64,000 bases of DNA from an uncultured Nitrososphaeraceae archaeon. Lineage in GTDB: Archaea; Thermoproteota; Nitrososphaeria; Nitrososphaerales; Nitrososphaeraceae. Below the pieces are notes generated by a model. That model saw only the letters and a list, made by a program, of their open reading frames with translations, searched no databases and had not been told where the DNA came from. The DNA is taken from the NCBI GenBank assembly GCA_963779615.1, contig CAVZZA010000004.1:64001-128000 (forward strand). Reading direction: 5' to 3'. The first letter of the stretch is position 1; the number at the start of each line of letters is the position of its first letter. Shown here in pieces: positions 22,897-47,615 of the stretch. Both the position numbers and the translations under genes were made by a program.

Positions 22897-22980
22897 GCGG
22901 GGGTCGCCTAGCCTGGTAGGGCGTGGGATTGCTAATCCCATGTTCGAAAGAACTCGTGGGTTCGAATCCCACTCCCCGCG
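22897..22980 (+). tRNA. tRNA-Ser(GCT)
   Basis: GCGGGGG/TCCCCGC acceptor, TGGGA-TTGCTAA-TCCCA anticodon arm, long variable arm GTTC-GAAA-GAAC, GGTTCGAATCC T arm. Confidence 0.97.
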
Positions 22981-23216
22981 CTTATCTTGGGAACTATGCA
23001 ATAATGTTAAAAATAATAAAAGCCAAGTTTCTCTTAGAAAAAAAGGGTTGTCTCACAAGCAAGAATATAACGCAGAACAAGACGAAACAGAGCATGATAC
23101 AATATTTAGAAAGACAGATTCCGTAACAAAAACCTGCACCAAAGCCTACTTTAACAAAATTCTAAAAAACCTTGCACAAGAAAGTCCTGAAAATGCAACA
23201 TAATTTGCGATTATAG
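22959..23216 (+). mobile_element. Truncated, frameshifted tyrosine-integrase-like fragment overlapping the tRNA-Ser 3' end
   Basis: GSNPTPRAYLGN/CNNVK...RKTDSVTKTCTKAYFNKILKNLAQESPENAT/ICDY resembles, from memory, the N-terminal region of Nitrososphaeraceae integrases; sits at the core/accessory boundary. Confidence 0.6.
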
Positions 23217-23232
23217 TTTACTCTAGTTGTCA

Positions 23233-23829
23233 TTTACTTTACTTTTGTATTTTGGCTTATAAAGAATCTGTCTGTTTCCTGATCTATAAAAGCAAATATT
23301 ACAAATGTAGTGAAGTCCTTACCAATATCATCTTTATCTGGTACTTTAAACTCAGAATCATATACCTGTTCAAATTCGATTCTATCATCTTCATCAAACT
23401 CCCCTCTTACGATATCTTATGCTTACATCCTTATCTATAAGGTAAATTTCTCTTACTCCTGGATCATCGTCACACTCCAAAACATCACATCTAAAGTCTA
23501 AGTTTATGACATCTCCCCTTTCAGGCGTATCTTGCTATCTGATTCTTCTGAATGTGCTGTTTACTTAAACCCTTCAATATCTCCCTCGTCTTTCACAATC
23601 GACTTCAATTCTGTAATCTTTATGGTTTTGTACAATTACCTTGTTAGGGGCATCAAATTCATCTTTCTCATCATCACTACATTTGTCATTATCGTGGTTT
23701 TCATTATTGCCAACACCATCTGCATATGACTTCACAAAATCAAAATCTATTGATACTGTTGGATAACCGAGATTATCAGTATAGCTATGATGTCGATACT
23801 TTTATTTTCAAGTCGTATTGGCTTTTCAT
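23233..23829 (-). pseudogene. Decayed acidic, probably secreted protein
   Basis: Collinear acidic fragments across several frameshifts/stops: SYADGVGNNENHDNDKC, DVINLDFRCDVLECDDDPG, DIVRGEFDEDDRIEFEQ...TKVK*. Confidence 0.55.
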
Positions 23830-23906
23830 AATATTCAATTATATTTTTCATAATATTTAAAATTATTTAAAATTATCGTAAGATAGTCACAAGATGTGGG
23901 TAAATT

Positions 23907-24374
23907 ATGCATATAAAAGATAATATTTATATATTTTTTCACTATTATATCAATATGTTTAGCATTGTTTTAGCATTGTTAGGATTGTCGGTATTGATGA
24001 CACTGTTAAGCCCAACTATTGCCTTTTCTTCAGAAGATGGCAATGGTGATCATGGAAAAGGATCAGATGTAGATATTCATGTCAACGTAGATTTTTCTAG
24101 TGGTGAGGATAAAAACTGTCTTAACAACTATGTTACTGTTTTCACAATTGAAAATTCAAAAGTACGGTTCACAGATTTTTGTGACACAGAGGAAGAGAAC
24201 GGTGACTTATCATTTGATTTTCAGCTTGGATCAATAGAGAAAGGACAGGTAATCAATGCATGCGCATTTGATGGCAATATACTAGAAGAAGATGGCAATA
24301 ATTTCGGAGGGGTTTGTGATTCCAAAAAGTACCGTGGACAAGAAGAGGTTAAATTTGAATTAGAGTGGAAATAA
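23907..24374 (+). CDS. Secreted acidic Cys-containing hypothetical protein (start probably 23955)
   Basis: Signal peptide MFSIVLALLGLSVLMTLLSPTIAFS; 4 Cys; beta-rich. Confidence 0.75.
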   Translation: MHIKDNIYIFFHYYINMFSIVLALLGLSVLMTLLSPTIAFSSEDGNGDHGKGSDVDIHVNVDFSSGEDKNCLNNYVTVFTIENSKVRFTDFCDTEEENGDLSFDFQLGSIEKGQVINACAFDGNILEEDGNNFGGVCDSKKYRGQEEVKFELEWK

Positions 24375-25049
24375 CGATCCATAAATAATTTTTTCTATAC
24401 GGGCGGCCAATTTAATCAATTGCTTATCTATCTTATCAATTGGCATAACAATAGGTTAAAGATTTAAAAATCGAAAATACAGCATTTTATTTATGACCAA
24501 CATTAGAATGATTTATTCTATTATATAATTTTCATTGAACTATACAATTTAGAGCACTTTCGATCTTTGAACTATGTTATACTCAGCTATTGTATGGGTG
24601 TTTTTTTGATATTGCTGATTTTTTCTTTGCAAAGTTGACTCTAACTTTATCTACTACAAGTATTACCTTACAACAGAAAATAAATTGGATAAAATTGGAA
24701 GTTCGCGTGAGCATTATGAAAAATTAATAGACAACATGAGTTTACATGAATAATAAATTTTTTGTACATATCCACTCTGTTGTTTTTTTGACACCTCAAA
24801 TTTTTATGTGATATTTGATTCTAATACAAAGTGATTGTTTGTTAAAAAATGCAATACAACCACTCTAGCTCAATGATTTCAATCCTTCTCAGTCCCTTGA
24901 AAGCACCGCGAGAAAAAATCCATATAAGTTTTAATCATGTTTCAAGAAAATAGTTAACCAGTTATTTTTTTAATATAAATTAACAAAACAAAATCAGGTG
25001 ACAGTTTTGTTGACCATCTAACAGATCTCTCGATGTTAGTTCTTTATGA

Positions 25050-25079
25050 TAGTCAACTATCGAATCCCATAGTTGACTA
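25050..25079. promoter_or_regulatory. Perfect 11-bp inverted repeat with 8-nt spacer
   Basis: TAGTCAACTAT-cgaatccc-ATAGTTGACTA, about 65 nt upstream of 25145. Confidence 0.5.
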
Positions 25080-25144
25080 GGTAACTTGTATGATCAACAA
25101 TATATTAATTATCTAGTGTTGGTTTATAACATAAAATTATATCG

Positions 25145-25471
25145 ATGAACAAAGGTGAAGACTTAGAGGAAAAGAAATTGTTAGGTTCAGGTGGCTATGC
25201 TTTTGCCAAACTAACAGAGGAAGAGGAAGTCAAAGCCAGTCTCGGGATTAATAAAATATTTTTAGGAAGTGTAGGTAGATTAAATGAAGATAGGTTTTCA
25301 AAGTATTATTGCAATAGATGTGGAAAAGAATATTCAGATTGCCCAATAATAAGTTATGAAAACCCAAATGAAGAGGTAATAGGAGAAGGTATCATTATTA
25401 TTGAAACAGGAGAATACAAATGCAGAATATGCAACAATATAATAGCAATCTATCGTCAATTCAGTAAATAG
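25145..25471 (+). CDS. Zn-ribbon protein
   Basis: YYCNRCGKEY...GEYKCRICNNII. Confidence 0.82.
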   Translation: MNKGEDLEEKKLLGSGGYAFAKLTEEEEVKASLGINKIFLGSVGRLNEDRFSKYYCNRCGKEYSDCPIISYENPNEEVIGEGIIIIETGEYKCRICNNIIAIYRQFSK

Positions 25472-26165
25472 CAAATAACATGATGCATTAAATCTACAAA
25501 TCAACATCTGGACACATTTTCTTTCTCCTGTCGCTTAAGTAAATGAACTTATTAAATTATTTCCTATGGTTTATACTTTTACTTTTTATTTCTTATTTGG
25601 AAGTGCTGCCAAAGCACTATTCTGCAATATTTGTTAAATTATTGTCCTTGATATGCTATCAGATTCAATTAATTGGATGGTGTTGCGAATTAACCTAAAA
25701 TAAATTCGTCATAGATGTAGGGGATGTCACATTTGCCTGTACTGTTATTTTCCATGCTCTTTTTTTGATGCATTTACTATAGAATACAAGTGTTGTTAAT
25801 TTGAAGAGGCAGAAATAACAGTACAGGAAACCCTGATATCCATGATAACCCTGGCATAAAAAATAGGTTTAATTTTCTTTCAATGATAAATAGCATTTAT
25901 CAATTAGTAAAAAATATGCTCCATCAGAATCTATGAGTTATATGCTTCATTAGGTCTGGTAGATTTTTATCATATCTTGTTGTCAAACAATCAATTTTGC
26001 AGTTCAATACCAGTAGCCGATTGGAGTTGCCTAGCCCATTTGGGAGTGGTATTTGAAACAGTTTGACTTTAACAAGGATTTGTCCATAAGAATTAAGGGA
26101 CAAAAACCCTGCTTTGGACTAAGCCTCAAAGGGATTGCGCAAAGTAAAATATCTTGGGACCGTAT

Positions 26166-26799
26166 TTATTCTAGTGTTAGGTTTCCAACAGGCTGAATAT
26201 TTGTAACACACACTACCTCAACATTGTTTTCCGAGTCAAACTTGGGCTCTAGTTTAAATGTTACTACTTTATCTATATTTTTCCCCATTTCAAATGCTAT
26301 AGGTACTATTGCTTAAGCTGCTGGTTGAATTAAAGTTCGTAGGAATTCCAGATAATTCCATGCTTTGATTGGATATGGAAACATTGCCTGGAGATTGGAG
26401 TGTCAAGTCCTTGACCTGAGGATTATTACCGCATTTACTACCATTGCTGTTATCAGATACCAACTTCACAAAGTGATTATGCCAAACGGGGTCACTTGCA
26501 TCCTTTTGTTGCAGGCTATCATAAACACCCATATGAGTCGTAGCTGCAATTACTGACTCAAATCCCTTATCTGAAATAATTGCAACACCCAATGCACCAC
26601 TCGAACCATTCTGATTTATTTCTTTTTCAGATTGCATACTCGAGCTTATTGCCCTATCCATTTTTTTTATTTTAGCGTCAGATAGAGTAAAATTTTCTGA
26701 TGATGCAAATGCAGATATCATCTCTGTATTTTGAAAAGAGATGCACATGATGAGAGTCAATGCAACTCCTGTTGAGTGCATTAATATGCTTTGATACAT
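26166..26799 (-). pseudogene. Secreted hypothetical protein with a frameshift near 26292
   Basis: Signal peptide, ATTHMGVYDS, WHNHFV; continues in another frame as EMGKNIDKVVTFKLEPKFDSENNVEVVCVTNIQPVGNLTLE*. Confidence 0.7.
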
Positions 26800-28112
26800 T
26801 TGAAAACTCTAGGTAAGAATGGATTTATTAACCATGTTTCAATTCTCTAAAGACATTCTCATTAAAGAGAATTGTGGATTTAGTGACCTGTCTCCAATTA
26901 TAATACAATACTTTTGTTGTCTAATGATAAATCCAAAACTTTAAACTTTCTTTTAATTATGAAAAATGGTTTTGATTATTATCAATAAATAAGGTAAAAA
27001 AATAAAATGTTTATCGTTACTCAATGACAGATATTAGTATCAAAGAGACAATAAAGGAGTGATGGTAAGAATGCCAATGTCATTCCCAATAACGGTTACT
27101 CCTTTATTACCGTAGATATGAGTCCCAGTTTACTAACGTTCCAGTGTTTATGACTTGTCCAGGATTTGGCTTGAGTTAGGCTGCGCTTATTTTCTTGTGT
27201 CTATTTGGTTATTTGATAGACATAGTTAGGTAAGCCTAACAATAATATAAAGTTAGCCACAAGTCTCCATTGTTATAATACTGATATAAACCAGAAAAAT
27301 CATACGAATAAAATCAATTCTATAAAGATTTTGTTTATTTGTATGGTTCTGTTCACCCGAGGAAATACTTTTTCTCTGGGTATGTGACAGTGTTATTAAA
27401 CGAAAAAAATATTGTACTTATTCAAAGGTTAGTTTGAGGGGCATTTGTGTTCCATTTAAAGCATCAGATGGTGATGGGGTGGGAGAATATGTCTATAACA
27501 GATTGTCTCCTTTACATATATCAATACCTCTAGAGAATACTATAATCCCTATTGGGAAGAGTGACACATTTTTATATTTTTTGCTCTATAAATTAATTTT
27601 GAAATAAATTATATAGTGAGTATGGCATGTGATCAACAAACAAATGGTTTAACCGATATTCTAAATTCATCAAATAAATAAACTATTTTCAAAAAAACGT
27701 ATTTCTATCAATAGAATCAAAAATGAGAATAGATAGATTATAAATACTGCATATAGTAAATAATAATAAAGATATTCAGACTCATTTGAGTAAATTGGTT
27801 ACTCAAACAATAAGTAATAGAGGTTACATCCGTAGTAATGACAAAAACCTTTATTACTTTTTTAGCTCTTGTACCTTACTGTTCTTTTTGAACAATTGAC
27901 TATAACTCAATTTCTTATTAATGTTTATTCAAATAAGAACTAATTTCCTGTTTAATCGTTGAAGGAGGATTCATTTAATCTGTCATGCTAATCTTTGGGA
28001 CAGTTATAATCAAAATCATTTCCCAAGGGTTGGCTTTAAGCTGTTGTGAATTATACCCAGATATAATTTGAATTATGACCATGCCTCAACTAATTAAATT
28101 GAAATCTAGAAA

Positions 28113-28331
28113 GGCTTGATTGGTGGACTAACCCTATTTCTATATGGAACAATCCCAACGATACACCCACCTAATTTTGGCAGATTATAACCAGCCTATG
28201 AACGAATATTCGTAGTAAGGGCAATAATCGGGGGCTTGGTAATTGATAAAAAAACCGACAAATATAAAATCATCGGTGGAATTACTGTTCTCATAGGCGT
28301 TTCAATAATAATTTACTTTTTCATATCCTAA
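28113..28331 (+). pseudogene. YnfA-family (SMR-like) membrane protein remnant
   Basis: LIGGLTLFLYGTIPTIHPPNFGRL*PAYERIFVV...IDKKTDKYKIIGG matches the YnfA pattern YGxIPTxQPxxFGRVYAAYGGIF; N-terminus lost. Confidence 0.75.
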
Positions 28332-28707
28332 CTATCGTTCTTTTTTGTGTGATTAATTTTAGTAACTTTGTAATTTTTTAAAAGGTTATTATGGCAATAG
28401 CCAGCAATTAGTATGGGTTTCTGACTAATATTATGCAAACAATTTTTGAAGTCATGACATTGACATTAGTAAACGCATTAGGCAAAGTCATAAGAAAACC
28501 GCATTATTTTTATCAGGATAGTTGTAATACCGGATACAAGTGCCTATATTGAAATGAGTATAGCGCAACCCAATACTAATAGGAATTCCGAAAAAGTGAA
28601 TTATATGACATTACATATTCATTTAAATTTAAGAATTATGATGAACAAGGTTATGTTAACTTAGTCAGGATGAAAACTAAAGACATAGAAAATATTTATT
28701 ATTCAAG

Positions 28708-28944
28708 GTGCCTTTATATCTTCTTATGTCTAAAACTACTACAAGTATAGGATGTACTCATTGTGGCCAAATGATTACAATAGGTTCGCCTGACCATACC
28801 CACACAGTAGCTACTCGTACAATGAGATGGGGTTTTGATATGTTTGACTATATTCCTATGAACGTAAAATGTACCAAATGTAATCAGAATAACTTTGTTT
28901 TATGGTATAGGTCGTCGTCAAATCCTTGGTTTAGATTTAACTAG
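28708..28944 (+). CDS. Small Zn-binding protein (start probably ATG 28726)
   Basis: CTHCG...CTKCNQ. Confidence 0.7.
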   Translation: MPLYLLMSKTTTSIGCTHCGQMITIGSPDHTHTVATRTMRWGFDMFDYIPMNVKCTKCNQNNFVLWYRSSSNPWFRFN

Positions 28945-29231
28945 TTTTCTGGTAAAACATCCATCACATTTTTCATCTGTTTAGTGAAATCATAAAGTAC
29001 CTTTTGGCTTTTTTCTGTAATACTTGCAGATGCTTTTAACCTCTTACCATTTAACTCTGAATGACTTTTGACATCGCTCTGTTTCAAGGTTCTTAGATGA
29101 CTTGCCAGGTTACCAGCAGATATTTCTAAAATACAATACAGTTCGGCAAATCGTAATTCTTCATTCCTAAGATGATTGTAACAAATCATACATGAAGTGA
29201 TTTTTTCAGAATTTGAGTGGATTTTAATCAT
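28941..29231 (-). CDS. Winged-helix (HTH_34/ArsR-like) regulator, possibly decayed
   Basis: LRFAELYCILEISAGNLASHLRTLKQ...ITEKSQ; wing appears shortened. Confidence 0.6.
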   Translation of the reverse strand: MIKIHSNSEKITSCMICYNHLRNEELRFAELYCILEISAGNLASHLRTLKQSDVKSHSELNGKRLKASASITEKSQKVLYDFTKQMKNVMDVLPEN

Positions 29232-29479
29232 AAAACAGTAAAAGCGTCAGCAAATGGCGAAGCCAACATCGAATTTACAAACCATGTGTCAAAAGATGGT
29301 GAACAAATTAACTGGATATTCACTAGCAAAAGAATAATAATAAAAACTGTTTTCAAGGAAAAATCATTACTAGGGAATATTCCTGCAATAATATTTTACA
29401 GTAAAGCAAAAGGGTTCAATGACCAAAGTTCTTACTTCCCACTAAATCATCCTCAAATGGAACAGGAGCAAGAGCAGGA

Positions 29480-29775
29480 AACGGAACAAAACAATACCTC
29501 GTCTGTTTCCATGTCCAGGGCGATTGCAACATCCCTAAAATCTTGCCCACTTTGAACAGTTTGAAGGCTCAAGAGTTTATGGATATGCCTTTACCAGACT
29601 ATTCTGAGTTCTCTTCTTCTCCCAGATAGTTTCTGATTATTATCTCGATGTCTTTAGGTGAGAAGTGTGCCCATCTTGGCTGCTATGTCCAATGTATTCT
29701 TTCCCTCTTCGGAGTTTGATTACAAGGTCCGCTTTTTGTTGTGGCTTTAAATTCTTTAGACACCCATACACATAG
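29480..29775 (-). pseudogene. Remnant of a Nitrososphaeraceae double-HTH/coiled-coil hypothetical protein
   Basis: Across frameshifts: KADLVIKL/EEGKNTLDIA/HFSPKDIEIIIRNY...SINS*AFKLFKVGK/DVAIALDMETDEV. Confidence 0.6.
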
Positions 29776-31212
29776 CCAATAAATCTAAAAGGTTTTGATT
29801 CCTTGATTTTTAATGCCAATTTTATGACGCAGTTGATGGACCTAATAACCTCCAATGCCAGTGTGGAGTGATTTGTGTAAGTATGCAAGCCTCATTCAAG
29901 TAAACCCTTTCATATATAGAACTAGGGTGGTATCTCTGCCTTGCCAGCAGCCAAACTACCAGCAACAAAGATACCTTGGCGATAAAAGAGGTTGCTGAAG
30001 GCACTAAACAAGTACTCCTATGTTAGATTTCATTCACTTTTGAATCGCATCCCTAAGGACCCGTCATCCATCGGGTTCAAATAATTTTTCATTTCCAATT
30101 ACCATAGATGGGAAGGAAGGAGACATTTTTTACCTGGAGTTAACAACGAGCATCACAAACAGATAGAGGAGAAGTCAAAGAAACAAGTTGACCGAGAGCG
30201 ACACCGGAATTCTCATTGTCTGACCAGTGTTGACACGACAGAAGGCTACAAAATGGGCTGCCCAGGGTCTTGACAGAATATCCGGAATAGCCTTGTGGTC
30301 TTTTTTAGCCACTGAAAAACATGATGGAGCAGGGAGCTGCTGCTGCTGCTGCCTCCTTTCAGCAATTTGTTGCCAACAGCATGGTACTTTCCTCATCCTG
30401 TTTTATGTACACTATCACCATGCCTCCTCTCAATATGTACGCGCATGATGGTATTTCCTGCTGCCTACTCTTGGATTATGAATGACCGCTGTGTGAGGCA
30501 CCCGCCAAGTATGAGCATCGATCGTCAAAGCAAACGTGGATTGTCTAGATCTCACTCTTCCACGCGAACAAACACCTCCACTTGAATTCCAGGGTGAGGG
30601 GCCTTCGCTTTGGGGTTGCGACGTAACCGTTGTGGGCGTCAAAGGCAGAAAATGCCTCTGTGAGGCAGGGTATGCCTTTCAAAATAAAGGAAAACCCAAC
30701 CATTGCCAAAATGTTTATATATATAAGTATGGGAGGAAGTTGTGTATTTTTATACACCAATGCCCGAGTAATTACCTATTATATATCTATGACTAGAACA
30801 TATATAACGGAATACAGGGAATAGGGCAGGCTTTTGACAAAATCATTCGTTTAGGGATGGGGCGTTTTCTATTGCTACTCACATAGCCCCCTTCCCGGGG
30901 CTGACACAGCATTTTTGGACCTGGCATTCGAAATCCACTCGCCTTGGAGGCAGCAGCAGACCATGCCGCAACTGGTTTGGAGCTGTGATACAGTTATGGT
31001 TGTAAAACTGATCTTTCTGCAATGCACAACATCGACGATGCGGTGGCCGAGAATTTGCATTACTGCTGCAAAAACTTAGGCAAGGCAAGCCCCACTTGCA
31101 AAGATAGCCTGCCTTCAATCCCGGTGACTACCGTATGTGGGTCACTTTCATCGGTAGTGAGTATTATCCATAGCCCCGGCCAAGTGTCTGTCCGAAGATC
31201 CTTCTATTTACG

Positions 31213-31470
31213 TCATACTCTACCGACGAACATCTCAATGCTGGTGATGAGACTGCTGTCTTCTAAGGCGAGGAGTGTGGAGGCTTTGGGGACTTCATCA
31301 GGGATCCCCATCCACCCCAGCGGCGGCGCAGTGATAACGTTGTTTGCCTTTAACTGCTATCTTGGTTCCCCTTTGGATCCATACCGCCGGTCGTCGGTGT
31401 GTCTATCGAACCGGGGCTTAAGGCGTTGACGCGGATCCTGCGCTTGAACACTTCAAACGGGCCAACCGTC
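31213..31470 (-). pseudogene. C-terminal remnant of an SDR oxidoreductase
   Basis: RIRVNALSPGSIDTP.../PLGWMGIPDEVPKASTLLALEDSSLITSIEMFVG. Confidence 0.8.
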
Positions 31471-32022
31471 GGCACGGGGCGAGATAATGAAAGAATAGTG
31501 AAAGGTGGTTGTGGAAGGGAATGACAGCGTGGATTTTGGGACCTGCAATCTACAAGGCCTTGTGGTCTTGCCTCAAGCGGCATGCTCAGTGGTTTATATA
31601 TATATAAGTGAATGCATGCTAGATATACTTATGGGTAATTCATAATAAATTGGTGTCCTTAAAGACACTGCAATTGATTTTGATTTCGGCAGGTCAAAAG
31701 ATGTGGGGCGGTGTCGCGTGCCCTCCTCCACCATAGCCTCTCACTAATGTGCTAATAAGTAAATGGCCCACCGCTTTTGTGCCGCATCCAAAAAGGAAGA
31801 TGTCTCCACTACCAGTCTTTACCATCTGTTGGTTTTGAAATCCTTTTAAAACCATTTAATGGATCTTCTTCAAGGCATTTAAGCTGTTAAAAGTCTCATA
31901 ATAGTCTATCCTCTGAAAAGCCCTAGGCAACTGCTGAAGTGACCGCCTGTCATCACCGCGACACTTTATATTTGCAAAGACACATGAAAGTGCTGAACCA
32001 AAGGTTGTTTATAAGATAAGGT

Positions 32023-32600
32023 TTAGTCACGCGTTTGACTAAAAAATAGGTGCTTATGGGTTTGCCTACAGAGGGTGTGACTATAAAAAATACCATAGGC
32101 ATGCCCTCCATATGCGTTGGATACTGTGCATGTGGGTGTTTGGCCTATGTCATCTATTATGGCGTTGAATCCTTCCAAAAATGTTGTTGTGAGGGACGCT
32201 ATAACGGAGACGGTGTCTCTATTAAGATTTGTCACTTACATGAAGCCGTTGTAGGGGTTGAAGTCAACGCAAGGTGGAAATGATCCCATTACTAGTATGG
32301 TGGTCGCAACCTAGTTTGTTGCTCCGTCTATCACCGAGACGTTGTTGCTATTTTGGTTTGTCACGTACATGAACTCGTTGTACGGGTTGAAGTCAACGCT
32401 AGGTGGAAATAATCCCACCGGTATGGTGGTCACAACAAATACTGGTCGTGCATCACTCTGTTAACTGGTAGGTGACAGGAAACGGCGGGTTTATCCTCGA
32501 AAGTGTCCCAATCTGAGCCATTGAAGGATATACACCCGTTGCTTGTGGTTGCCGTAATGTTGAATTCATCTGCCGTTGGACACTTAAGACCAGAAATTCG
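32023..32600 (-). pseudogene. YVTN beta-propeller surface protein remnant; two ~129-bp repeat units at 32199-32436
   Basis: VTTIPVGLFPPSVDFNPYNEFMYVTNQNSNNVSVIDGATN*VATTILVMGSFPPCVDFNPYNGFM*VTNLNRDTVSVI. Confidence 0.85.
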
Positions 32601-33820: not shown

Positions 33821-34345
33821 AAGTAAATAAACAAACTATTTAAGACTCTGCCCATCATGGCCATTTTCACTTGACAGTGTCCATTCCATTCTTATGATGT
33901 CCTAAAATGATGGTTACAAAAATGAGAAGGAATTTAATTGATAGCCAAGTCTTGGGCCGAGCATTTTCTGTTTCCAGGGTTTCCTCTTTTTTTGCCATGA
34001 AATAATAACTCCCTAGGTGTATTTGTTATGGGAGAGCAAACGAACTTTATCCGGGAAAAAGATTATTTGATTGGATATAATACGTCTTCATCTGAATCCA
34101 CTCCATCTGTAATTTAAACATCGCCTTGAGAATTAAGAGCAGTTCCGACAGGGTTTTGCGAATGCACATGCGCTGGATCAATATTTTCAATGGTTCATAC
34201 CCTTATTTTTTAGCGTTACCTTTAATTGGATATAAAGTGCTGAACTATATACATCACCTCAAGATTATATTGTCGGTTGATTGAATTTACCCTGCAATTA
34301 TCAATTGGTAATACGGTTAAATAAAATGGATGGCAGGTTATTTCG

Positions 34346-35350: not shown

Positions 35351-35850
35351 TTAATCCCTCTCATTTGAAGATATATTTAACAAATTATCTGCCGCTGATC
35401 TTGTGGCGGCATCTTCTATCATGTGAGAAGTACAGGTTAAACTAGTTCTATAAAATATAATTTAAAAGATTTAGATGAGAGTGGGAGGGTTTTATTCTTT
35501 GAGTCATTGTATTTTTGGTCTTTGGTGTCTAGTGTACCATGCTTTACGAAAGTAAAGCAGCACGGATTGTACTGAATTCCTATTGTTGTGAGGCATATCT
35601 TTCGCATCAGTTGGATGCACTCCCACTAGTTTCTAGGTGGTGAGATCAGGGTCTGCTTTTAGCATGAGGAAACAGATTAAGGATACACATAAACTATCGC
35701 ATTTATTTCAACAATTTAGGTGAAAGTGAACAGATACCTCTTAATGGAACATTATTATTGCTCGGTTTGCAACATGAATTAACCATTTTTATAATGCCTG
35801 CCTGTTGGTTTACAATACATTTAAAAATAACAAATTAGGATATAATTAAA

Positions 35851-37847: not shown

Positions 37848-38420
37848 CTTCTATGATCACATTTTACCTACTGATCACATTATTTAAAATGGTAGTGGAC
37901 TTGTAAAGGAAGGCTTTTTTGCTTCTCAATAATGCTGTCTACAACGACTTGGTCTTTTGACTATTCGATCGTTTGTTTTATTTGCTGTGGAGTGATATCA
38001 TGATATTACTTGAGAATATATTGTAACTAAAAAGATCTCTTATTGTAGATGTCTTGAAAAACAAAATTCTGTATGATAATAAAGCAATGAAACATTTTTT
38101 ATTGGACTGTGACGAGAAATCAGATTGGGTTGAAAAACGGATAAATCAGTATATGATAGGGTTGTTGAGTCGCCGGTTGCAAAATGTATCATCATTGTCC
38201 ATGGTATTATGCTATTCAAGCCCACACGATTGTAATTAGCATTACATTAATAATCAAGTTTCATAAGACTAGTGACCGTATGATAAGATTTATTGTATTA
38301 ACGCTTTAGACATCATTACACGATTGCTGTCTACTTGCCAAAAAGGAATCATAACCCGGTATATGTTTTTAAAAATAAATTAAAAAATCACTATTTTCTT
38401 GTAGTAATTGTTAATGGATT

Positions 38421-39041
38421 TTACCACCCTGAATTGTATTTAGATTGACCTCCGCCATAATCACCATGCATACCCTTCATCCCTTTGCCTTGATCATAAT
38501 CACCATGCATATCCATCATTTTCATGCCCTCATGTCCTCCTGAATGCATCATCATCATCCAGTCCATCATTGACAATTCTTTTGATTGCAAGACTTGACC
38601 ATTGCCTGGGTCTACTAGCACCTTATTGAATTTCATATCAGGGGATCCCAAAATTATGGAATACACCAGCACTCCGCCCTTCTCGTCACCATTTGCGGAC
38701 ATGGCATATGAGTTGTTTCCTACGTGCTGCTCAGCAGTAGTTATTGCCTGTGTTAAAGTTGTGTTGACTTTTGATTCAATAGCCTGGTACATTGTATTCA
38801 TAATATTGATGGTTCCATTAATTTTCTCGTGTGTCTTATTCTCCACACCCATCATTGGGTTATCGTATCTATCTTTCATCATCACGTTGTTGCCAGCCAT
38901 ATCTGTTGTATTTGCACTTGGGGTCGCATCTGTTTGTGCAAAAACATTGCTTGAAGTTGAAATGGGTAGAAACCCTATTGTTGCAGTTATCAATGCTGCC
39001 AAAATCACAAAACTCATTGGAAATTTAGTAGTCATTGTCAT
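38421..39041 (-). CDS. Secreted PepSY-like protein with Met/His-rich tail
   Basis: Signal peptide; TLTQAITTAE...LVYSI...VDPGNGQVL; tail MMDWMMMMHSGGHEGMKMMDMHGDY. Confidence 0.82.
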   Translation of the reverse strand: MTMTTKFPMSFVILAALITATIGFLPISTSSNVFAQTDATPSANTTDMAGNNVMMKDRYDNPMMGVENKTHEKINGTINIMNTMYQAIESKVNTTLTQAITTAEQHVGNNSYAMSANGDEKGGVLVYSIILGSPDMKFNKVLVDPGNGQVLQSKELSMMDWMMMMHSGGHEGMKMMDMHGDYDQGKGMKGMHGDYGGGQSKYNSGW

Positions 39042-39523
39042 TTAATGAAAAGCAACAGATAAAAGTTTATACTATATTATTTATGTGGAAAATTACACTC
39101 TAAGATAATATCAAAGGGATTTGCATCAGACTTGGCATCTAGTCACCATGTTTTGTATATCATCACTCATGCATTCCATATGCTGTTATTCTTGGGTGTC
39201 TTGCCTGATATTCGCAATTTTTCCTTTTTTTAACATTGATTGTAATATGAGCGCATATTGTACAAACCCAACCTACCAAATTAATTATTCAAATCTTATC
39301 CATGGTGGTTTTGCTCAATTGGTTATAACAAGTATGTCATAACAGCATATGTATTTGAAGAAGAAGAAGATCAAGGATAAATCAAAATTATGTGAAATAA
39401 TGGCTTAGTCTATTTATTGACCAACAAAATAAACATACGGTGTTAGGTTAAAAGCCTATCGCTTAGAGCACTTCTTTTCAAATAGTTTAGCATTTAATAT
39501 ATAAAGAGAGAATATACAAAAAT

Positions 39524-40281
39524 ATGTCTGGCTTAAATGAGCATACCGAAGAACATTGTCAACAAATATCCCAATTAAAGTAAAAATTGGCCATAGTTAC
39601 AATACATGATGCTTGCCCTGCTTTCTCTACAAAAACATTCCAATTAGCAGATGAACTTGAGGACATGGAAATAAAATTCAATATATCTTTAATCCCCTTT
39701 TACAAGGAAATAGGGATTTGCCAAGGTTTCCTGAATTTGTAGAAAAAATTAAATCATACAGACAGTGTGAAATAGCTTTACATGGCCTCTACCATGAGAG
39801 AAAAAACGGTGAGTCTGATAACTTTCATTCAGTTACAAAGGCAGCTGCAGAAGGGGAAATATGTGCTGGCCTTGAAATATTTCAAGAAGTAAAAATAAAA
39901 ACTAATGTGTTTATACCGCCAGCATGGAAGCTAAATGATGAATCAATCGATATACTGGAAAAAGTAGGATTTGAATTTTCGGAAATGGAAGAAAGACTCC
40001 TATTGAACTCAAATTAAATCATTCAAAAAGATAAAAGTTCTCAAAGTATTTAATTGGGATTCGACAGGATATCCTGAAAAAACACCGTAAACATTAAACG
40101 AGACGGAAAAAGATTTCAAGACTTAATTAAACAATCTCCTCCTAACATTAGGGTTGCCTTGCATCCACGAGATCCAACTGGAGCATTAGATGAACAAAAA
40201 GATATGATAAATTAACAAAAAGGGGAAAACTTTCTTATGCCCTTATATTCTGAGATAATACCAAAATTGCAGGAATTATAG
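39524..40281 (+). pseudogene. DUF2334 / polysaccharide deacetylase family pseudogene
   Basis: IVTIHDACP, EIALHGLYH, FIPPAW, RVALHPRD spread over stops and frameshifts. Confidence 0.8.
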
Positions 40282-40803
40282 CCAATAAAAATAATCTCTG
40301 TAACTAAACAATGCCTATACAAATAAGTGACACATTACATTAAAGGCTGCTCCATCTGAAAAATTAACAATATTTGTTATAATTTCGTTATGAAATTGAG
40401 AAACAAGTTCAAGGCTATTCCCTACGGATTAAGCCCTGAATTCCTTAGGAGAATGAGGTTTTCAGTAGGTGTTATAAAGGCTCTTTGGGATGGAGGATTA
40501 AAGACAGGTCAGAAACTAAAAGGTATCAAAACGAGATAGTCTGCCTAATATCTCATACTGTGAGAGAATGCAATTACTCAAGGCCTAAAATCATGATGCT
40601 GCCTAAAGAATGCCTTGTTGCATGATTATTGCAAATCGCTTTTTGTTGGCCTTTTGGTTATTATCGGAGTATCGAGTCATAATATAATGGAAATTGCTAA
40701 TATAGTGGCATAGTTTTAACCGTTTTCGAATCATGCAACAAGGGACTAAAAAAACAAAAGGAAAACTCTATAGCCTTTGGATTTGCATTGAAGGTGATTT
40801 GCA

Positions 40804-41901
40804 TTGAGTGAGGATTTTATCAAGGTTGCCGATACAAAGGACATCCAACCTTCACAAATGAAAGAAGTCCAAGTTGATGGTGAAAATATCTGCGTAGTTA
40901 ACGTCAATGGAAAATACTACGCTATTGGTAGTATTTGCACTCACGAAGGTGGACCTCTAGCCGATGGAACTCTTGAGGGATATGAGGTTGAATGCCCCTG
41001 GCATAACTCAAAATTTGATGTAAGGACAGGAGAAGTGACAAGCCCTCCTGCAAATGAACCAGAACCGTCCTATGAAGTAAAGGTAGATGGCAATAGCATA
41101 CTGATAAAGAGACAAGGTAAAAGCAAATCATCTCCTCTAACTGAGCTAACATTGCTAGAAAAAAATAAAGTCGAGGGAACCGACGTAATGTCATTTAGGT
41201 TTGGTAATCAGAATAACCAGGAAAAAGACAGAACACCACTACTGGATTATACCGCAGGTCAGTTTGCCTTTTTCGATATAGGTGGTGTATATGCTGACAC
41301 CAAAGGCCCAATCAGGCATTTTACCATTTCATCTTCCCCAACTGAGAATTTTATAATGCTTAGCACCAGAATCAGAGACTCGCCATACAAAAAGAGACTC
41401 TCAACATTAGAGGAGGGTTCTAAAGTCAAGGTGAGGGGCCCTGAGGGGCAATTTGTTTTGCATCAGGATTATTCAAAGCCCGCTGTGTTTATTTCTGGAG
41501 GAATAGGCGTAACTCCATTTAGAAGTATGATAAAGTATGCTACGGATAAGCGGCTGCCATCGCGTATATTCATGTTTGATTCGAACAGGAACAAGGGAAA
41601 CATTCTTTTCAAAAAGGAGTTTGATGATTGGGAAAATACAAATAAAAATCTAAAAATTATCTATACCATTAGTGAAGATCCACACGGACAATCATTACCT
41701 GCTGCAAATGGTTGGAAAGGAGAATACGGAAGAATAGACAAAGCGATGATTTTAAAGTACATGGATAGTAACGCAATAAACAATTCAATGTTCTATGTCT
41801 GTGGTCCTCCTGGCATGCTAAAAGATATGCAGTCTTTGCTCCAAGAGGATATGGGGATTCCAAAAGAAAGAATCAAGGTTGAAGAGTTTACAGGTTACTG
41901 A
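40804..41901 (+). CDS. Rieske [2Fe-2S] ferredoxin fused to an FNR-type FAD/NAD(P) reductase
   Basis: CTHEGGPL...CPWH; RHFTISSSP, GGIGVTP, YVCGPPGM, EEFTGY. Confidence 0.93.
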   Translation: MSEDFIKVADTKDIQPSQMKEVQVDGENICVVNVNGKYYAIGSICTHEGGPLADGTLEGYEVECPWHNSKFDVRTGEVTSPPANEPEPSYEVKVDGNSILIKRQGKSKSSPLTELTLLEKNKVEGTDVMSFRFGNQNNQEKDRTPLLDYTAGQFAFFDIGGVYADTKGPIRHFTISSSPTENFIMLSTRIRDSPYKKRLSTLEEGSKVKVRGPEGQFVLHQDYSKPAVFISGGIGVTPFRSMIKYATDKRLPSRIFMFDSNRNKGNILFKKEFDDWENTNKNLKIIYTISEDPHGQSLPAANGWKGEYGRIDKAMILKYMDSNAINNSMFYVCGPPGMLKDMQSLLQEDMGIPKERIKVEEFTGY

Positions 41902-42810
41902 GGATTAAAGGTCAACTGTTTCCTTTTGGAAATTACTTTTCACTCCCAAGTCTAGGCCAAATATGCTTTAAATGGCTACGAGCTTACAATCCGTTCGATT
42001 TAATGGTATGTCCTAGTGATGCAAGTGATATTTGATTTTTAACCAAGATTAATCCTGCTGTAAAAGGTGTTAATTGATTAGTTAATAACCTGTTTTCACA
42101 TTTTTTGCAATAAAAGTAAAACTGTTTTAAATAAGGACTCCTAACAGTCATCACTATTTAGTAAAGATGTTAATTTCTCGATGTTTTGATTAGTCCCCAA
42201 AGAAAGATCATCCTGATATAAAAAAAATAAATAATGTGATCAAGTCAATTTATATTACTATTTTTTATATCCCGATTAACCAAATTAACTATAACGCAAA
42301 AAGGTTAATACTATTTTAACTTCTGTATAAACTAGATCATCATTTAATACTGATAGTGATAAACGTGATGAAACCCAACTATCAAAAGCAGTAAAATCAA
42401 TTAGACAACTAAAAAATATCGAGAAGGAAATGGTAAAACTAAGGTTCAAGGAAGCTGAATTAAAGGTTTAGGTTCTAATATGACATATATCCAAGAGTAT
42501 CTTCTATATATAACACATTGATATTCAGTTGAAACTCTGGATGAAAAGAAAGAATTAATTTATCATTACCATTTTTGGCATAGGAAATGCAATTAATATG
42601 TTTGTCAATCAGGGTTTCCATCACACATGAAAATATTTTCTAATTGACTCCTATGTTTCAGTAATTCATTTCACATATATTTTCAACAAAAAAACTTTCC
42701 AGAAAACCACTCTTTGCATATAACATGTAAAATCCTGTTTATTTGATTATAATTCTTTGGCAAAAATTATTTGATAGTTATAAAATCCCAAAATAAGAAT
42801 GAAAGCCATC

Positions 42811-43263
42811 TCACAATGAATCCATAAATTGGACAAAATCAGAATTATGGACGTGTTTTGTATTATCCCAAACCTTTTTGAATTTTGGGATATCAATAAG
42901 TGTTTCTGCTAGTGCTTTCCATCTGGGCCAAAGCTTTGTATCCATCATTTTAGTATTATATTGGTGAAAAAGAAACTCAATTAAATCAAGGTATGCAACT
43001 ACAGTGTAATATTCATCAGGGTTATCTACTAGAGCCAGCCGTTCTGCAAATAACGGGCTTTCTTTTGCCATCTTTGTAAATGTTTCATTGTTTTCAAGTT
43101 TCATTCTTGATTCGATTATTCTGGCATATATCTGCTGTTCACTTTGTATACGCATGCTTTTCTTTATTGATGAGGATTGCAACAGTGATAAACCCAATAA
43201 AGATGCAAGTATCCCAACAGTAATTATTGTTGAAATTTCTGAGAAATTCATATCATCTTTCAA
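42811..43263 (-). CDS. Hypothetical protein with N-terminal TM
   Basis: 150 aa; TM followed by helical domain with WPRW...FKKVW. Confidence 0.75.
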   Translation of the reverse strand: MKDDMNFSEISTIITVGILASLLGLSLLQSSSIKKSMRIQSEQQIYARIIESRMKLENNETFTKMAKESPLFAERLALVDNPDEYYTVVAYLDLIEFLFHQYNTKMMDTKLWPRWKALAETLIDIPKFKKVWDNTKHVHNSDFVQFMDSL

Positions 43264-43459
43264 TTACAAGGTACTATGCTTTAGAACTTATTACATTAAT
43301 TTAAAAAAAAATATGGTCCGTTTTCTTAAAAAATTAACTTGATGCTCTTGATTGAAATATGCAAAAGATTTTCTTAACGGGGTGTAAAATTTAGGTAAAA
43401 GGTCCAAGCAACTTGTTTGACTAATAGTTTTGTGCTCAATACGTTAAATTTCCTAAATC

Positions 43460-43625
43460 AAAAGACAAGTGCCGTTCCGATCTTTCTTCCTGCCAAAGCT
43501 TACTCATGGACATTCTATATGTCCATCTTGTGCCAATATTTTCCATAAAACCCTTGACCAATAAATAAAACAAAAAGGCCAATAAAAGGAATTAGGCCAT
43601 TAAATCCAATCAATTGAGTTTATGC
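43460..43625 (-). pseudogene. N-terminal remnant of a sodium:solute symporter
   Basis: FIGLFVLFIGQGFYGKYWHKMDI*NVHE*ALAGRKIGTALVF; usual partner of DUF3311. Confidence 0.7.
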
Positions 43626-43848
43626 ACCCGCTTGCTGCGGCATTTCTGTCTTCCCCCTTTTTCTCTAAATAAGCAAATGCTAAATAAAATCCAGAACAAA
43701 TGACAAGCCAATTCGTTTGGAACCAGTAAAAAAATGGCAACCCAAAAATGCTTGGTATTTCTTTGTCATAAAGAGGAACTAGGAGATTAACTGTAGATGG
43801 AATTAATATCGAGGCGACCAAAAAAATATCTCTAGATTTGATATTCAT
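43600..43848 (-). CDS. DUF3311 small membrane protein
   Basis: VPLYDKEIPSIFGLPFFYWFQTNW. Confidence 0.85.
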   Translation of the reverse strand: MNIKSRDIFLVASILIPSTVNLLVPLYDKEIPSIFGLPFFYWFQTNWLVICSGFYLAFAYLEKKGEDRNAAASGCINSIDWI

Positions 43849-44098
43849 GAATTTTGGGCATTATTGTCAACATACAAATATTTTGGATGTTCTTTCAAAA
43901 TGACTTTCTGTGTTACATAATCATTAAAAGGATTGTTTTCGCAATTTATTTATCTGTTTTGGTAACATTGAAGGTACCGTTTTAATCTGTATTTGCTGTT
44001 ATTATGACCGAGAATCAAGATCAGGTTTATATTTTTGTTAGGCTAACCGAACTGTGTCTACATTCATTCTAAAAATGATTTGTAGAATATCATCCCTT

Positions 44099-44145
44099 AA
44101 GGGACTTGCAATAAGGGTCTAACCCACCTTTTATTGCAAGCCCTT
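44099..44145. repeat. Inverted repeat / hairpin
   Basis: AAGGG-a-CTTGCAATAA...TTATTGCAAG-CCCTT, 15 paired bases with one bulge. Confidence 0.7.
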
Positions 44146-44630
44146 TCACATCTTTTTTAGTGATTCCTGTTTTTCAATATATAATTTCATTCATATAAAT
44201 AACAATCAAATCATAAGCATAACAAGATCAACCTTTATGATAATTGTGATTGCCCAATAGTAGACACCAAATAAATAACTGGCTCTGTTAACTTAATCAT
44301 TTTTAATTCCTTGATTTTCCATAAATATTTAAATTGAATGATTATGCGTTGCTCTGCGTATGGTTATTGGGTTATGGATTATGGTTTACATAATAATGAG
44401 TAGTATCAAACTAATCGGAATTCTCCAGAGGCAGACTATGAAGGTAAAGTAAATCTTATTGTAACTTAAATTCCAAAATAGCATTTTAATATTTTTGGCA
44501 GTGTTTAATCACCGACTGGAATGTATCAGGACAATAATCTGTCCTAAATGTGATAAACTCATATTAACCACACGATGATATACCCATTAACACAAAATTG
44601 CTTAAATATCACCCAAATATCTAAATCATA

Positions 44631-44939
44631 ATGATAAAATCAAATTCTGTTGTAAAACTGTCAGCAATAGCTGCGTTGATTTTTGGAATGGCAGTAGGAC
44701 CCTTGATGTCTGTAAATACTACAGCTAATGCACAGCCTGCTAACTGCCGTGAGAATTGGGGTGTCTATTATTGTGATGGTTATGTTTTAGGTAAATATGA
44801 CTGTGATCAGAAATATTCCTATCGTGACAAAGCTACCGCTTACAAAGAAGCATGGAAGGATAATACATACAAAGAACAATGGTGGAAGGGATACAGCGAG
44901 GGTTGGACTAAATCTGGTTGTGGTGAGCGGACAAAGTAG
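44631..44939 (+). CDS. Small secreted 4-Cys aromatic-rich protein; probable true end at 45000 after a frameshift
   Basis: Signal peptide ending ANA; TATA-like TTAAATA at 44602-44608; (SGQS)5-YGGY* follows in the +1 frame. Confidence 0.75.
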   Translation: MIKSNSVVKLSAIAALIFGMAVGPLMSVNTTANAQPANCRENWGVYYCDGYVLGKYDCDQKYSYRDKATAYKEAWKDNTYKEQWWKGYSEGWTKSGCGERTK

Positions 44940-44985
44940 CGGACAAAGTAGCGGACAAAGTAGCGGACAAAGTAGCGGACAAAGT
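44926..44985 (+). repeat. Perfect tandem repeat, 5 x AGCGGACAAAGT
   Basis: Read directly from the sequence. Confidence 0.97.
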
Positions 44986-45569
44986 TACGGCGGCTATTAA
45001 CCAAATTATATTAATAGAAACTAATTATTTTGCTGTCATCAAATAATTTTTTTGAAAACTGCTTAGAAATTAGAAAATAATTTGTTTTGTTTCATATCTG
45101 AATATTATATCTACTAAGGGAACGATTAGTATTATGATAGAAACGATTGCTGTCCCAATGTTATTGAAAAAAACTTATGGTAATGCTGGAGCCGAACGTT
45201 ATGATGGAGGAGACTAAATAATTTAATTTTTTTAAAGGGCATATTTTATAATACTTTTAGATGAGTGAATTATGTATTTAATTTTTCATTACGTTGGTGA
45301 ATTAAACTTGCCTAACTGAACCAGGCAAATCTTTAAAACACAACTTTGAAACAGGATCAAATTAAAAGGCCAGTTTAGTTGTTTTATTTTGTTTATGCAC
45401 CCAAGAAAATGATGAATCAACATTTCATTATTTAAGAAAGATATTTTCTATTTCATTTGTATAAATTAACAATGCAATGAAATTCCATCTAGTTTGATAT
45501 TCACTTTCATGTTGAAGATGTCAATACCAAAACGGAATCTTCACATGTTTTTGTTTTGTCTGTTTGACC

Positions 45570-46094
45570 CTATTCCTGGTTAGTGTCGATGGCATCATTT
45601 GCTGGAAGATTTAATGTAGGTCCAAAGGTATTTCCGTTATCTTTGCTTATCCTCATGACTGGTTCATTTGATGTTTGATTCTTTTCCCACCATGTAACAA
45701 AGACGTTGTCTCCTGAAGCCACTATTTCAGGATTGATTGAATCAAACATGGTGGAATTACTCAAATTTACCTTCTGTGAGAATAGATTTCCATTATCGTT
45801 ACTAATTCTTATCATTACTTCCCAATTTCCAGTTTTGTTGCTCAACCATACAACGTATACGTTGTCATCCGATACGACCATGGGTGCAAGTAAAAGGGGA
45901 GTTATCTCAAGATCCCCCACATCAAGCTCTCCCGATGCTGATTGTAGGGAGGCCAGGGATGATATTAATACCACTGATAACAGTATTGCTACTAATGAGA
46001 TTGCCAATTGCATTGCACCTCGGATAGAGGTAAATTTATTCATTTGAAAGGGTGAGGGAAAGAGTAATAAAGATATTTTGTTGCTCACATTCAA
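45570..46094 (-). CDS. Secreted BNR/sialidase-like repeat protein
   Basis: Hydrophobic leader; NVYVVW...SNDNGNLF, NVFVTW...SKDNGNTFG. Confidence 0.8.
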   Translation of the reverse strand: MNVSNKISLLLFPSPFQMNKFTSIRGAMQLAISLVAILLSVVLISSLASLQSASGELDVGDLEITPLLLAPMVVSDDNVYVVWLSNKTGNWEVMIRISNDNGNLFSQKVNLSNSTMFDSINPEIVASGDNVFVTWWEKNQTSNEPVMRISKDNGNTFGPTLNLPANDAIDTNQE

Positions 46095-46103
46095 GGTTAT
46101 GTG

Positions 46104-47300
46104 CTACTTTTCAATAGGGGCGCCGCTTTTCTTGCGATTCTTCAGGTAGTCAAAAATGTATGTTGATAATCCACCTACAAAACCGGCCCCCATTAGTGAT
46201 ATTAGAGCACCGTATGCACTCCAGAAATCCTTAATCTGTTCTGCCGTTGTAGGAGGTTTCATTACCGACAACGACAGGTTTGCCTGCTGGGTGATAAACC
46301 CTTGAGTTGGCACTGACAGATTAAAATTTGGGATATCAATGAATTTGGAAGGAAAGAGTGATCCTATTGATACATTCACCATTATAGGGATTGAGTACTG
46401 ACCAACTTGTGCATCATTTGGCACTTGTATCGTAAACTGTGTGGGCGCTACTCCAAATGAAGTAGAGGAGGAGCCGTTTGATGGCCTATCGGGGTTAACA
46501 ATTACTTTTATATCCGAATAATTCTGTGAGGGAATAAAACTCACATCTTGAGGTTGAAGGCCAGAGCTTGATTTCAACTGAACACCTATATCCATCCGTT
46601 CCCCTTGCCTTAGCACTAGAGGGCTTGGCAATGTTGAAAATGTATATGTTGATGGTGGAATGTCTATCCAGCTTGTAAGGTCTACAACACTTTTGGCATT
46701 ATTGTTGTATACCAATAAACTGTAGAACAACACTCTATACTTGGATGGAGATGTCATGGACTCTAAATCTAGTGGCAGGATAACATACTTTTGATTTACC
46801 ATGCTGTGATTTCTTTCCAGTTCTATAACCCTAAAGTGATCTGGGGAGGAGTACTCAAAAGTGTAGCTGCTCCACTTTTGGGTTTTGTTGCTCCATTGGA
46901 TTTCCTTTTGATAGTCAACTCCGAATTTTCCTGTTGTTGGATTGTTGTCTACATCAATCAATACTCCATACACCATATTACTCGCTCCTTCCGCCTTCGG
47001 AATTTTTGATACAACATCACCCAACCACAGCGTTGCGGTGAGATTTTTTCCATCACTAAAATAAGTGACTTTTTGGATGTCAGAAGAGTTATCCAATCTG
47101 TCCTTGTAGTCTGCTTTTGTTTGTGTATTTGCTGTTCCATTTACCTGAAGTCCATCTCTGATACCCACATTAAGTTCTTGGCGCGGGAATGATGCCAATT
47201 GGGCGCTAACATCATAACAAAAGGGAACGTTTATTTTGATCACAACCGCTAAAACAAATAGAGAAACTAAGCTACCGTATGATATCGAGGATTTTGGCAA
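46104..47300 (-). CDS. Surface protein with signal peptide, beta-sandwich domains and C-terminal TM anchor
   Basis: YGVLIDVDNNPTTG motif; Ig-like segment; FWSAYGALISLMGAGFVGG then KNRKK. Confidence 0.8.
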   Translation of the reverse strand: MPKSSISYGSLVSLFVLAVVIKINVPFCYDVSAQLASFPRQELNVGIRDGLQVNGTANTQTKADYKDRLDNSSDIQKVTYFSDGKNLTATLWLGDVVSKIPKAEGASNMVYGVLIDVDNNPTTGKFGVDYQKEIQWSNKTQKWSSYTFEYSSPDHFRVIELERNHSMVNQKYVILPLDLESMTSPSKYRVLFYSLLVYNNNAKSVVDLTSWIDIPPSTYTFSTLPSPLVLRQGERMDIGVQLKSSSGLQPQDVSFIPSQNYSDIKVIVNPDRPSNGSSSTSFGVAPTQFTIQVPNDAQVGQYSIPIMVNVSIGSLFPSKFIDIPNFNLSVPTQGFITQQANLSLSVMKPPTTAEQIKDFWSAYGALISLMGAGFVGGLSTYIFDYLKNRKKSGAPIEK

Positions 47301-47549
47301 AGGCTTATCTTAATACCATATGAATATCATATGCTAGATAACTCTTCTTTTTTCTGATACTTTCTCTTCTGTGAATAACCCGATTCCTTATCTCTATGTG
47401 AAACAAATGATGTCTTATTCCTTCCTGCACTGTATAGTCAAAATGGGAAATTCATATTTATTGATGATTTTTTTTGGTCAATACTTTTTTTATCGTTAAA
47501 AATAGGGCAGAAATTTTTATATGAGAATCCAAAATATACATATGATTTA

Positions 47550-47615
47550 TTCGAATCTCCCTACCTCCTCCCGCTTATCAGGCAGATTATTGCAACAATG
47601 TTAAAGATATCAAAT
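47550..47615 (+). repeat. Diverged copy of the tRNA-Ser 3' end plus downstream flank (att-like)
   Basis: TTCGAATC...CGCTTATC...TGCAACAATGTTAAAGATA versus 22961-23015 TTCGAATC...CGCTTATC...TGCAATAATGTTAAAAATA. Confidence 0.7.

Follow-up and report, generated by a model that had tools for sequence, protein, structure and literature searches.

The subject of this analysis is a stretch of 64,000 nt (hereafter the window) from the 3.17 Mb genome G000 of an uncultured Nitrososphaeraceae archaeon from soil (G000:C4:64001-128000), in which a tRNA-Ser(GCT) gene is followed by two junctions, each joining the 3' part of this tRNA gene to sequence that resembles the 5' region of an integrase gene. Both junctions are homologous to a family of junctions found in the genus (Candidatus Nitrosocosmicus), share the same left boundary, order and strand, and have lost their integrases. 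The probable explanation is serial integration at tRNA-Ser(GCT), in the course of which the older junction was pushed downstream, both junctions deriving from related tyrosine-integrase elements. An earlier note on this DNA had proposed such successive integrations, with displacement of the older junction by 24.6 kb. The proposal gains support from controls that are beaten by the pair of junctions, from a profile built independently of this genome (E = 0.0048) and from the occurrence of the same layout in two relatives (G018 and G031). The finding is a fresh example of a known process, the principle itself being textbook knowledge. Four features carry the argument (positions are those of the window):

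22897-22981, + strand: tRNA-Ser(GCT) gene, the attachment target (ARAGORN; Rfam RF00005, 55.4 bits)
22961-22989, + strand: attachment (att) core of 29 nt, running from TTCGAAT in the T-loop into the first 8 nt behind the tRNA gene (repeated in G012, G018 and G007)
22982-23203, + strand: relic of an integrase 5' region (P' arm and approximately 85 initial codons) up to a stop codon (tblastn, nhmmer)
47550-47611, + strand: decayed second junction, made up of the core with a 4-nt insertion and then ~35 nt of integrase-5'-like flank (pairwise tests, nhmmer)

The second copy of the junction

The tRNA-Ser(GCT) gene is the sole tRNA gene of the window (ARAGORN, Rfam). It had been noted that its 3' end and the adjoining flank recur, diverged, at 47550-47609, and local alignment of 22950-23220 with 47540-47700 confirms this: positions 22961-23015 (copy 1) pair on the same strand with 47550-47609 (copy 2), the starts lying 24,589 nt apart. 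Of its 61 columns, 47 are matches (77%), 7 are mismatches and 7 contain gaps. As also noted earlier, two stretches are exactly shared, the 8-mers TTCGAATC and CGCTTATC, and the motif TGCAAyAATGTTAAArATA agrees between the copies at 17 of 19 positions. The score of the pair (41) was compared with several controls. Dinucleotide shuffles scored 18.3 +/- 2.4 with a maximum of 31, none of 1000 reaching 41. Block shuffling of the 64-kb window gave at most 37 in 100 trials, and among the 46 other natural chunks of 64 kb from this genome the two best reached 37 and 36; these two are the chunks that contain the genome's two other tRNA-Ser-like genes. With 22961-23026 as the query, the best non-self match of the window was the 47.5 kb site (41; runner-up 28), and the pair is the best non-self match genome-wide as well. 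The alignment is therefore better than shuffled AT-rich controls and natural sequence alike.

The claim that the duplication extends beyond the att core into the flank is likewise borne out. When the flank past the tRNA-like end was considered alone, copies 1 and 2 scored 28, a value equalled by 4 of 2000 shuffles. Profiles for nhmmer were made solely from junctions of other genomes, either from 4 junctions or from 17 junctions of 15 genomes. The smaller profile ranked the 47.55-kb site third genome-wide (E = 0.044). The larger one placed the tRNA-Ser junction of the window first (E = 3.6e-16), a tRNA-Ser-like gene on contig C1 second and 47550-47611 third (E = 0.0048), with model positions 1-58 aligned, which correspond to the core and ~35 nt of flank. 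Both copies have AATGTTAAA and TGCAA, neither of which occurs in any of the 17 junctions of relatives (read from the profile alignment).

Copy 2 begins at TTCGAATC, the first base of the second att copies in G012, G018 and G007, and excludes the 5' part of the tRNA, of which no second copy above shuffles was found in the window; a candidate at 26023-26053 that had emerged from a repeat search (74%) was within shuffle noise. No different tRNA locus fits copy 2 better. Its 20-nt core, searched with ≤3 mismatches, has only 2 matches in 33 other genomes of the genus, both outside tRNA genes, against 5 for a reversed control pattern; no other tRNA from which copy 2 could have originated was found in the 34 genomes of the genus, and none of its blastn matches in its own genome is at a tRNA gene. 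The suggestion that both copies translate alike held in part: copy 2 has a single frame that reads AYQADYCNNVKDIK and then a stop, but copy 1 needs a change of frame to yield a similar translation, its open frame reading ..PRLSWELCNNVKNNK.. with AYLGN in another frame. Likeness of the sequence beyond 47611 to later integrase codons was also sought, and consisted of scattered 8-9-mers that we found unconvincing.

The integrase relic and the att core in the genus

Integrase genes of relatives were used to interpret the flank. Open frames of 511 and 507 codons leave the tRNA-Ser 3' end in G012 and G007, a 504-codon frame follows the core in G032, and in G033 a frame of at least 399 codons runs to the contig end; when counted after the core, the frames of G012, G007 and G032 amount to 503-507 aa. 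The frame is open through the core in all four genomes. The tRNA-Ser integrases of relatives match PF00589 at 27.5, 22.8 and 25.9 bits, the first two values being those of G012 and G007. The integrases of these two genomes are 56% identical to a full-length integrase located beside tRNA-Val in the genome of the window (C1:517032-518423). In tblastn searches with the same two proteins, residues 15-85 match 22991-23197 with 35% and 32% identity (E = 4e-5 for the G007 segment alone). The integrase frame of the window stops at 23201-23203, which leaves ~85 codons of ~510. Given that the match is limited to residues 15-85 and is followed by an early stop, 22982-23203 is therefore the 5' end of a cut-off integrase gene.

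Second copies in G012 (29 of 29 nt), G018 (28 of 29) and G007 (22 of 22) set the bounds of the core, which begins with TTCGAATCC in the T-loop and closes 8 nt behind the tRNA gene. A 26-nt core with ≤2 mismatches is present in 21 of 34 genomes of the genus, and two copies of it are present in 6 of the 33 other genomes. Four genomes have two copies on one contig and strand, which are 6.3 kb (G018), 18.8 kb (G007), 19.0 kb (G012) and 39.0 kb (G031) apart. Inspection of 20 core copies of relatives revealed 8 that lie behind a tRNA gene and 12 that have no tRNA upstream. These 12 displaced junctions all start at TTCGAATC, as do copies 1 and 2, and in 10 of them the core is followed by an integrase-5'-type flank (read by eye). 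In G018 and G031, the core and the integrase-5' flank are displaced downstream of tRNA-Ser on the same strand (by 6.3 and 39 kb, respectively); in G012 and G007, a second core copy lies ~19 kb downstream of tRNA-Ser. Behind the displaced copy of G018 there are 61 codons with similarity to the integrase relic in the window (39% identity, E = 1.8e-8). A core with an integrase 5' end and no tRNA is the normal trace of an older element displaced by a newer one. In G015 and G004, where no integrase is found behind the tRNA, the flank shows no resemblance to the integrase 5' end, its score being equalled by 72 and 456 of 500 shuffles, respectively; the bare target site alone therefore does not account for the similarity of the flanks. 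The 20 junctions from relatives could help to find more relics and to study the expression of this integrase family.

The flank contains a TATA-like sequence, ATTTATAC, and ~60 nt further a conserved in-frame TTG (read from alignments). It may represent promoter and leader rather than coding sequence; in our reading, G012 and G007 differ in the first 33 codons without a concentration at third positions.

The left arms of the displaced junctions are also of note. In 4 of the 12 the arm ends in CCTAATGGA (L013:~575-625; L014:~457-500, - strand; L009:~11402-11450, - strand; L035:~235-285), and these arms present an ATG in the integrase frame 5 nt before the core, while the other 8 lack such an ATG. 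With the ATG in the left arm, as in these 4 of 12, a full integrase frame would exist only in the excised circle. The att core would then lie within the first codons of the gene, ATG GAT and the promoter being at the other end of the integrated element (for one element type). It is conceivable, albeit rather doubtful, that the Nitrosocosmicus tRNA-Ser integrases are a mesophilic, PF00589-type counterpart of 'suicidal' integrases, with a complete gene only in the excised circle. If true, integration would silence the integrase, which would help to explain why dead integrase 5' ends are piled up behind tRNA-Ser across the genus. Alternatively, the integrase gene could be self-contained by virtue of the TATA-like box and the in-frame TTG of the flank. 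Suicidal integrases of the SSV type (PF16795) are covered in PMC8371274. As with these, the open frame of the integrase in relatives crosses the att core, and integration would part whatever precedes the core from the gene. In contrast to them, the tRNA-Ser integrases match PF00589, the PF16795 matches of G012, G007, G018, G016 and G015 lying elsewhere; because the Pfam family is another one, the tRNA-Ser integrases are not members of the SSV-type suicidal group. A further difference is that at most two codons (ATG GAT) would be split off, and this in only one type of left arm (4 of 12 displaced junctions).

Another observation concerns tRNA-Ser-like genes with long inserts at G000:C1:~404918-405100 and G000:C5:~409726-409834, which are not reported by ARAGORN. 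An integrase-5'-like flank lies behind the gene on C1 (nhmmer E = 2.8e-5), and integrase fragments are found at C1:414.6 kb and C1:426.7 kb; this locus may be a second hotspot.

Proposed serial integration and its alternatives

According to the scheme that we favour, the genus would harbour a family of tyrosine-integrase elements that attach at tRNA-Ser(GCT), with recombination taking place within the 29-nt core that begins in the T-loop. The integrated element would have its integrase gene directly behind the tRNA, so that each integration would leave a left junction composed of a tRNA end and an integrase 5' end. The next element would enter the rebuilt tRNA gene, and the earlier left junction, minus the tRNA 5' part, would land at the far end of the newcomer. 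The junction at 22961-23203 would thus be that of the last arrival, the integrase of which was later cut to ~85 codons, and 47550-47611 would be the much more decayed junction of an earlier, related element. The intervening 24.3 kb would be what remains of the last arrival together with later rearrangements, i.e. immobile, gene-poor accessory DNA. We infer this order of events, the origin of the interval as one element, and the nature of the DNA right of 47.6 kb as older inserted material. At least two insertion events would be dated in this genome by the two junctions, and tRNA-Ser(GCT) would be a recurrent entry point of foreign DNA in Nitrosocosmicus.

Several observations weigh against this scheme. 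Copy 2 is short and worn: in a plain genome-wide blastn-short search the pair yields only 29.2 bits (E = 0.84), and the copy 2 flank alone is a marginal match to the integrase 5' ends of three relatives (23 of 500 shuffles equal the score). The 60 nt to the left of copy 2 are unlike the element left arms of 12 relatives' junctions (best score 19, equalled by 700 of 1000 shuffles); this left arm may be of an unsampled type or decayed. Full-length integrases of relatives match only with residues 1-85 (22950-23197), the rest of the window having no integrase match at E ≤ 10 (tblastn), and no match to PF00589 or PF16795 was found in the window. The interval has no mobile-element hallmark (PHROGs, 47 frames; Pfam and NCBIfam scans) and no gene in common with the intact tRNA-Ser elements of G012 and G007. 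The nearest genomes are ~76% identical at the DNA level, and neither an empty site nor an identical element was seen there; a scan of metagenome contigs for closer strains with an exact 30-mer of copy 2 gave 0 matches.

It might be argued that only a single integration took place, that copy 2 is a plain right-end repeat whose flank resembles the integrase 5' end because the sequence common to element and chromosome usually reaches past the tRNA, and that no earlier element need be assumed. In agreement with this, the flanks behind the right-end repeats of G012 and G007 bear a faint likeness to that end, with scores equalled by 8 and 4 of 500 shuffles, respectively, so that some likeness past the core is possible at ordinary right ends. 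However, in G015 and G004 the resemblance to the integrase 5' end stops at CTTATCTT, the 61 codons behind the second copy of G018 are explicable only as the relic of an older integrase, and copies 1 and 2 share states that are absent from the 17 junctions of relatives. A single integration is therefore considered unlikely.

Copy 2 might also be a true junction relic that was moved to its place by an unrelated inversion, translocation or segmental copy, in which case the interval was never one bounded element. The region is indeed heavily rearranged in the genus (the tRNA-Ser block of G015, G007 and G017 is inverted with respect to genes at C4:11-29 kb here), core copies are found far from any tRNA-Ser in G011 (C5) and G044, and the left arm of copy 2 is unrecognisable. 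Yet copy 2 is on the same strand as copy 1 at a plausible distance (6-39 kb in relatives), the likeness begins exactly at the core boundary, and synteny with relatives is lost at the tRNA and regained at 56.4 kb at the earliest. On balance such a rearrangement appears quite improbable. As for chance likeness in AT-rich intergenic DNA, for which the blastn value, the composition of the flank and a third weak copy of its AT-rich part at 35811-35834 (79%, at noise level) could be invoked, the controls (0 of 1000, 0 of 100 and 0 of 46), the independent profile and the agreement of position, strand and boundary already disfavour it, and we regard it as very improbable.

Serial integration agrees with what is described for Thaumarchaeota, where 39 integrations (57%) have a tRNA gene as their target and, with one exception, use its 3' part, where re-use of a site by tyrosine-recombinase elements yields arrays, and where integrated elements measure 2.6-98 kb with a median of 17 kb (Krupovic et al. 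2019, PMC6563490); Nitrosocosmicus is not mentioned in the main text of that paper. The window resembles the arrays that tyrosine-recombinase elements of archaea and bacteria form at a single tRNA site in its direct repeats of the tRNA 3' part, with the newest element beside the tRNA and older junctions displaced downstream. It differs from them in being a fossil: both integrases are gone, the inner repeat has diverged by 23% and contains indels, and the genes of the element are unrecognisable. It is also like the cryptic elements of Thaumarchaeota described by the same authors in its fitting size, its tRNA target and the lack of signature genes besides the integrase; unlike here, where ~85 codons remain, the definition of those elements needs an integrase gene. 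A 2026 paper on skin Nitrosocosmicus reports islands flanked by integrases, and the word 'tRNA' is absent from its text (PMC13245735).

The surroundings of the junctions and other repeats

To the left of the tRNA, 18 kb are collinear with G018, G011, G032, G012 and G015, and this collinearity stops exactly at the tRNA; an orthologous aminotransferase-AsnC-tRNA-Ser block is present in relatives. For annotation, the core genome ends at 22981 and is followed by accessory, partly decayed DNA, which extends at least as far as 47.6 kb and probably reaches 56.4 kb. The sequence that follows tRNA-Ser in G015, G007 and G017 leads to genes that are placed 57-75 kb upstream here (C4:11.7, 19 and 29 kb); the aminotransferase-AsnC-tRNA-Ser block has therefore been inverted in one of the lineages. 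The features to the right of the first junction are as follows:

23204-47549, no strand: gene-poor accessory DNA between the junctions (frame density; Pfam, NCBIfam and PHROGs scans)
47612-56447, no strand: variable stretch, possibly an older layer (missing synteny)
47746-48129, - strand: response regulator
48119-50140, - strand: histidine kinase
52602-54344, - strand: thiamine pyrophosphate (TPP) enzyme
56448-59509, no strand: first genes again collinear with the tRNA-Ser contig of G018 (G018:C20:204694-207774), namely a histidine kinase (56448-58292) and a short-chain dehydrogenase/reductase (SDR; 58697-59509)

Frames of at least 100 aa cover 41% of the interval, 86% of the DNA left of the tRNA and 58% of 47612-56447. 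The genes of the interval are of ordinary accessory kinds (Pfam, NCBIfam) and include those for a winged helix-turn-helix regulator, a lactonase/YNCE beta-propeller, a BNR protein, a Rieske-FNR fusion, a DUF2334 fragment and a 398-aa anchored surface protein. In the PHROGs scan 3 of the 47 frames were matched, every family being a non-hallmark one. Homologues of the interval genes are scattered and non-syntenic across 33 genomes of the genus. No frame of the interval was found downstream of tRNA-Ser in the relatives examined, the nearest of which are ~76% identical; this region is variable in all of them. The 398-aa frame beside copy 2 (46104-47300) was considered as a possible integrase and rejected, as it encodes a C-terminally anchored surface protein with a signal peptide, which belongs to a multi-copy family and has no family match.

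Besides the genes listed above, 47612-56447 encodes a zf-UBP protein, a plastocyanin-like fragment and an LPG-synthase-like membrane protein; in the relatives examined, none of the genes of this stretch was seen to follow tRNA-Ser. Orthologues of the response regulator and histidine kinase are present in G004, G010, G005, G009 and G011, never on the tRNA-Ser contig, and their neighbours differ between G004 and G011 (the two genomes compared). A homologue of the 46104-47300 surface protein is absent from the regulator/kinase contig in all 5 genomes. Synteny across 47.55 kb is thus not unbroken in these relatives. The match of the kinase and SDR genes with G018 has the same orientation, lies ~40 kb downstream of the G018 tRNA-Ser and comprises two genes only. 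It seems from these comparisons that the variable stretch extends to ~56.4 kb. The earlier note regarded the DNA after 47.6 kb as an older layer of the same hotspot; the lack of synteny up to ~56.4 kb is consistent with this, but it is the sole basis for the assignment, which we accordingly keep as possible.

Several other repeats and fragments were encountered. The stretch 30023-31875 has 45-47% GC in a genome of 35% GC and no frame longer than 146 aa. Nine further copies are found in the same genome (70-84% identity, all with 44-51% GC and without long frames). Its central ~300 nt, in which a TATA-like box (TTTATATATAAG) is strongly conserved and a GTGTA..TACAC hairpin is present, occur in 3 of 33 other genomes of the genus (three times in G041, once each in G005 and G038). 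A structured RNA was considered and rejected (no Rfam match; weak RNAalifold result with a covariation term of +1.62; mean fold z-scores from -0.7 to +0.5), as was a dead gene (no 3-nt periodicity; 15 of 16 frames without a Pfam match and one with a weak match below the cut-off). This stretch may be a non-coding mobile or satellite element. A repeat of ~135 nt at 27962-28098 has 3 more copies in the same genome (76-82%) and many at 81-88% in G045, G003, G044 and G011; it looks like a miniature inverted-repeat transposable element or a small RNA.

Gene fragments at 31930-32600 (- strand) consist of YVTN-type beta-propeller repeats and include a 129-nt tandem duplication at 32199-32417. At 39470-40280 there is homology to DUF2334, which spans ~800 nt in relatives and is open here for ~118 aa only. 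A 12-nt unit, AGCGGACAAAGT, is repeated in tandem ~5 times at 44926-44990, at the end of the frame 44631-44939. Outside the window, a 306-aa frame of G011 (L019:14044-14961) has 99.3% protein identity with G000:C5:170813-171730, the neighbouring genes being 50-93% identical, and may represent a recent exchange with this genome.

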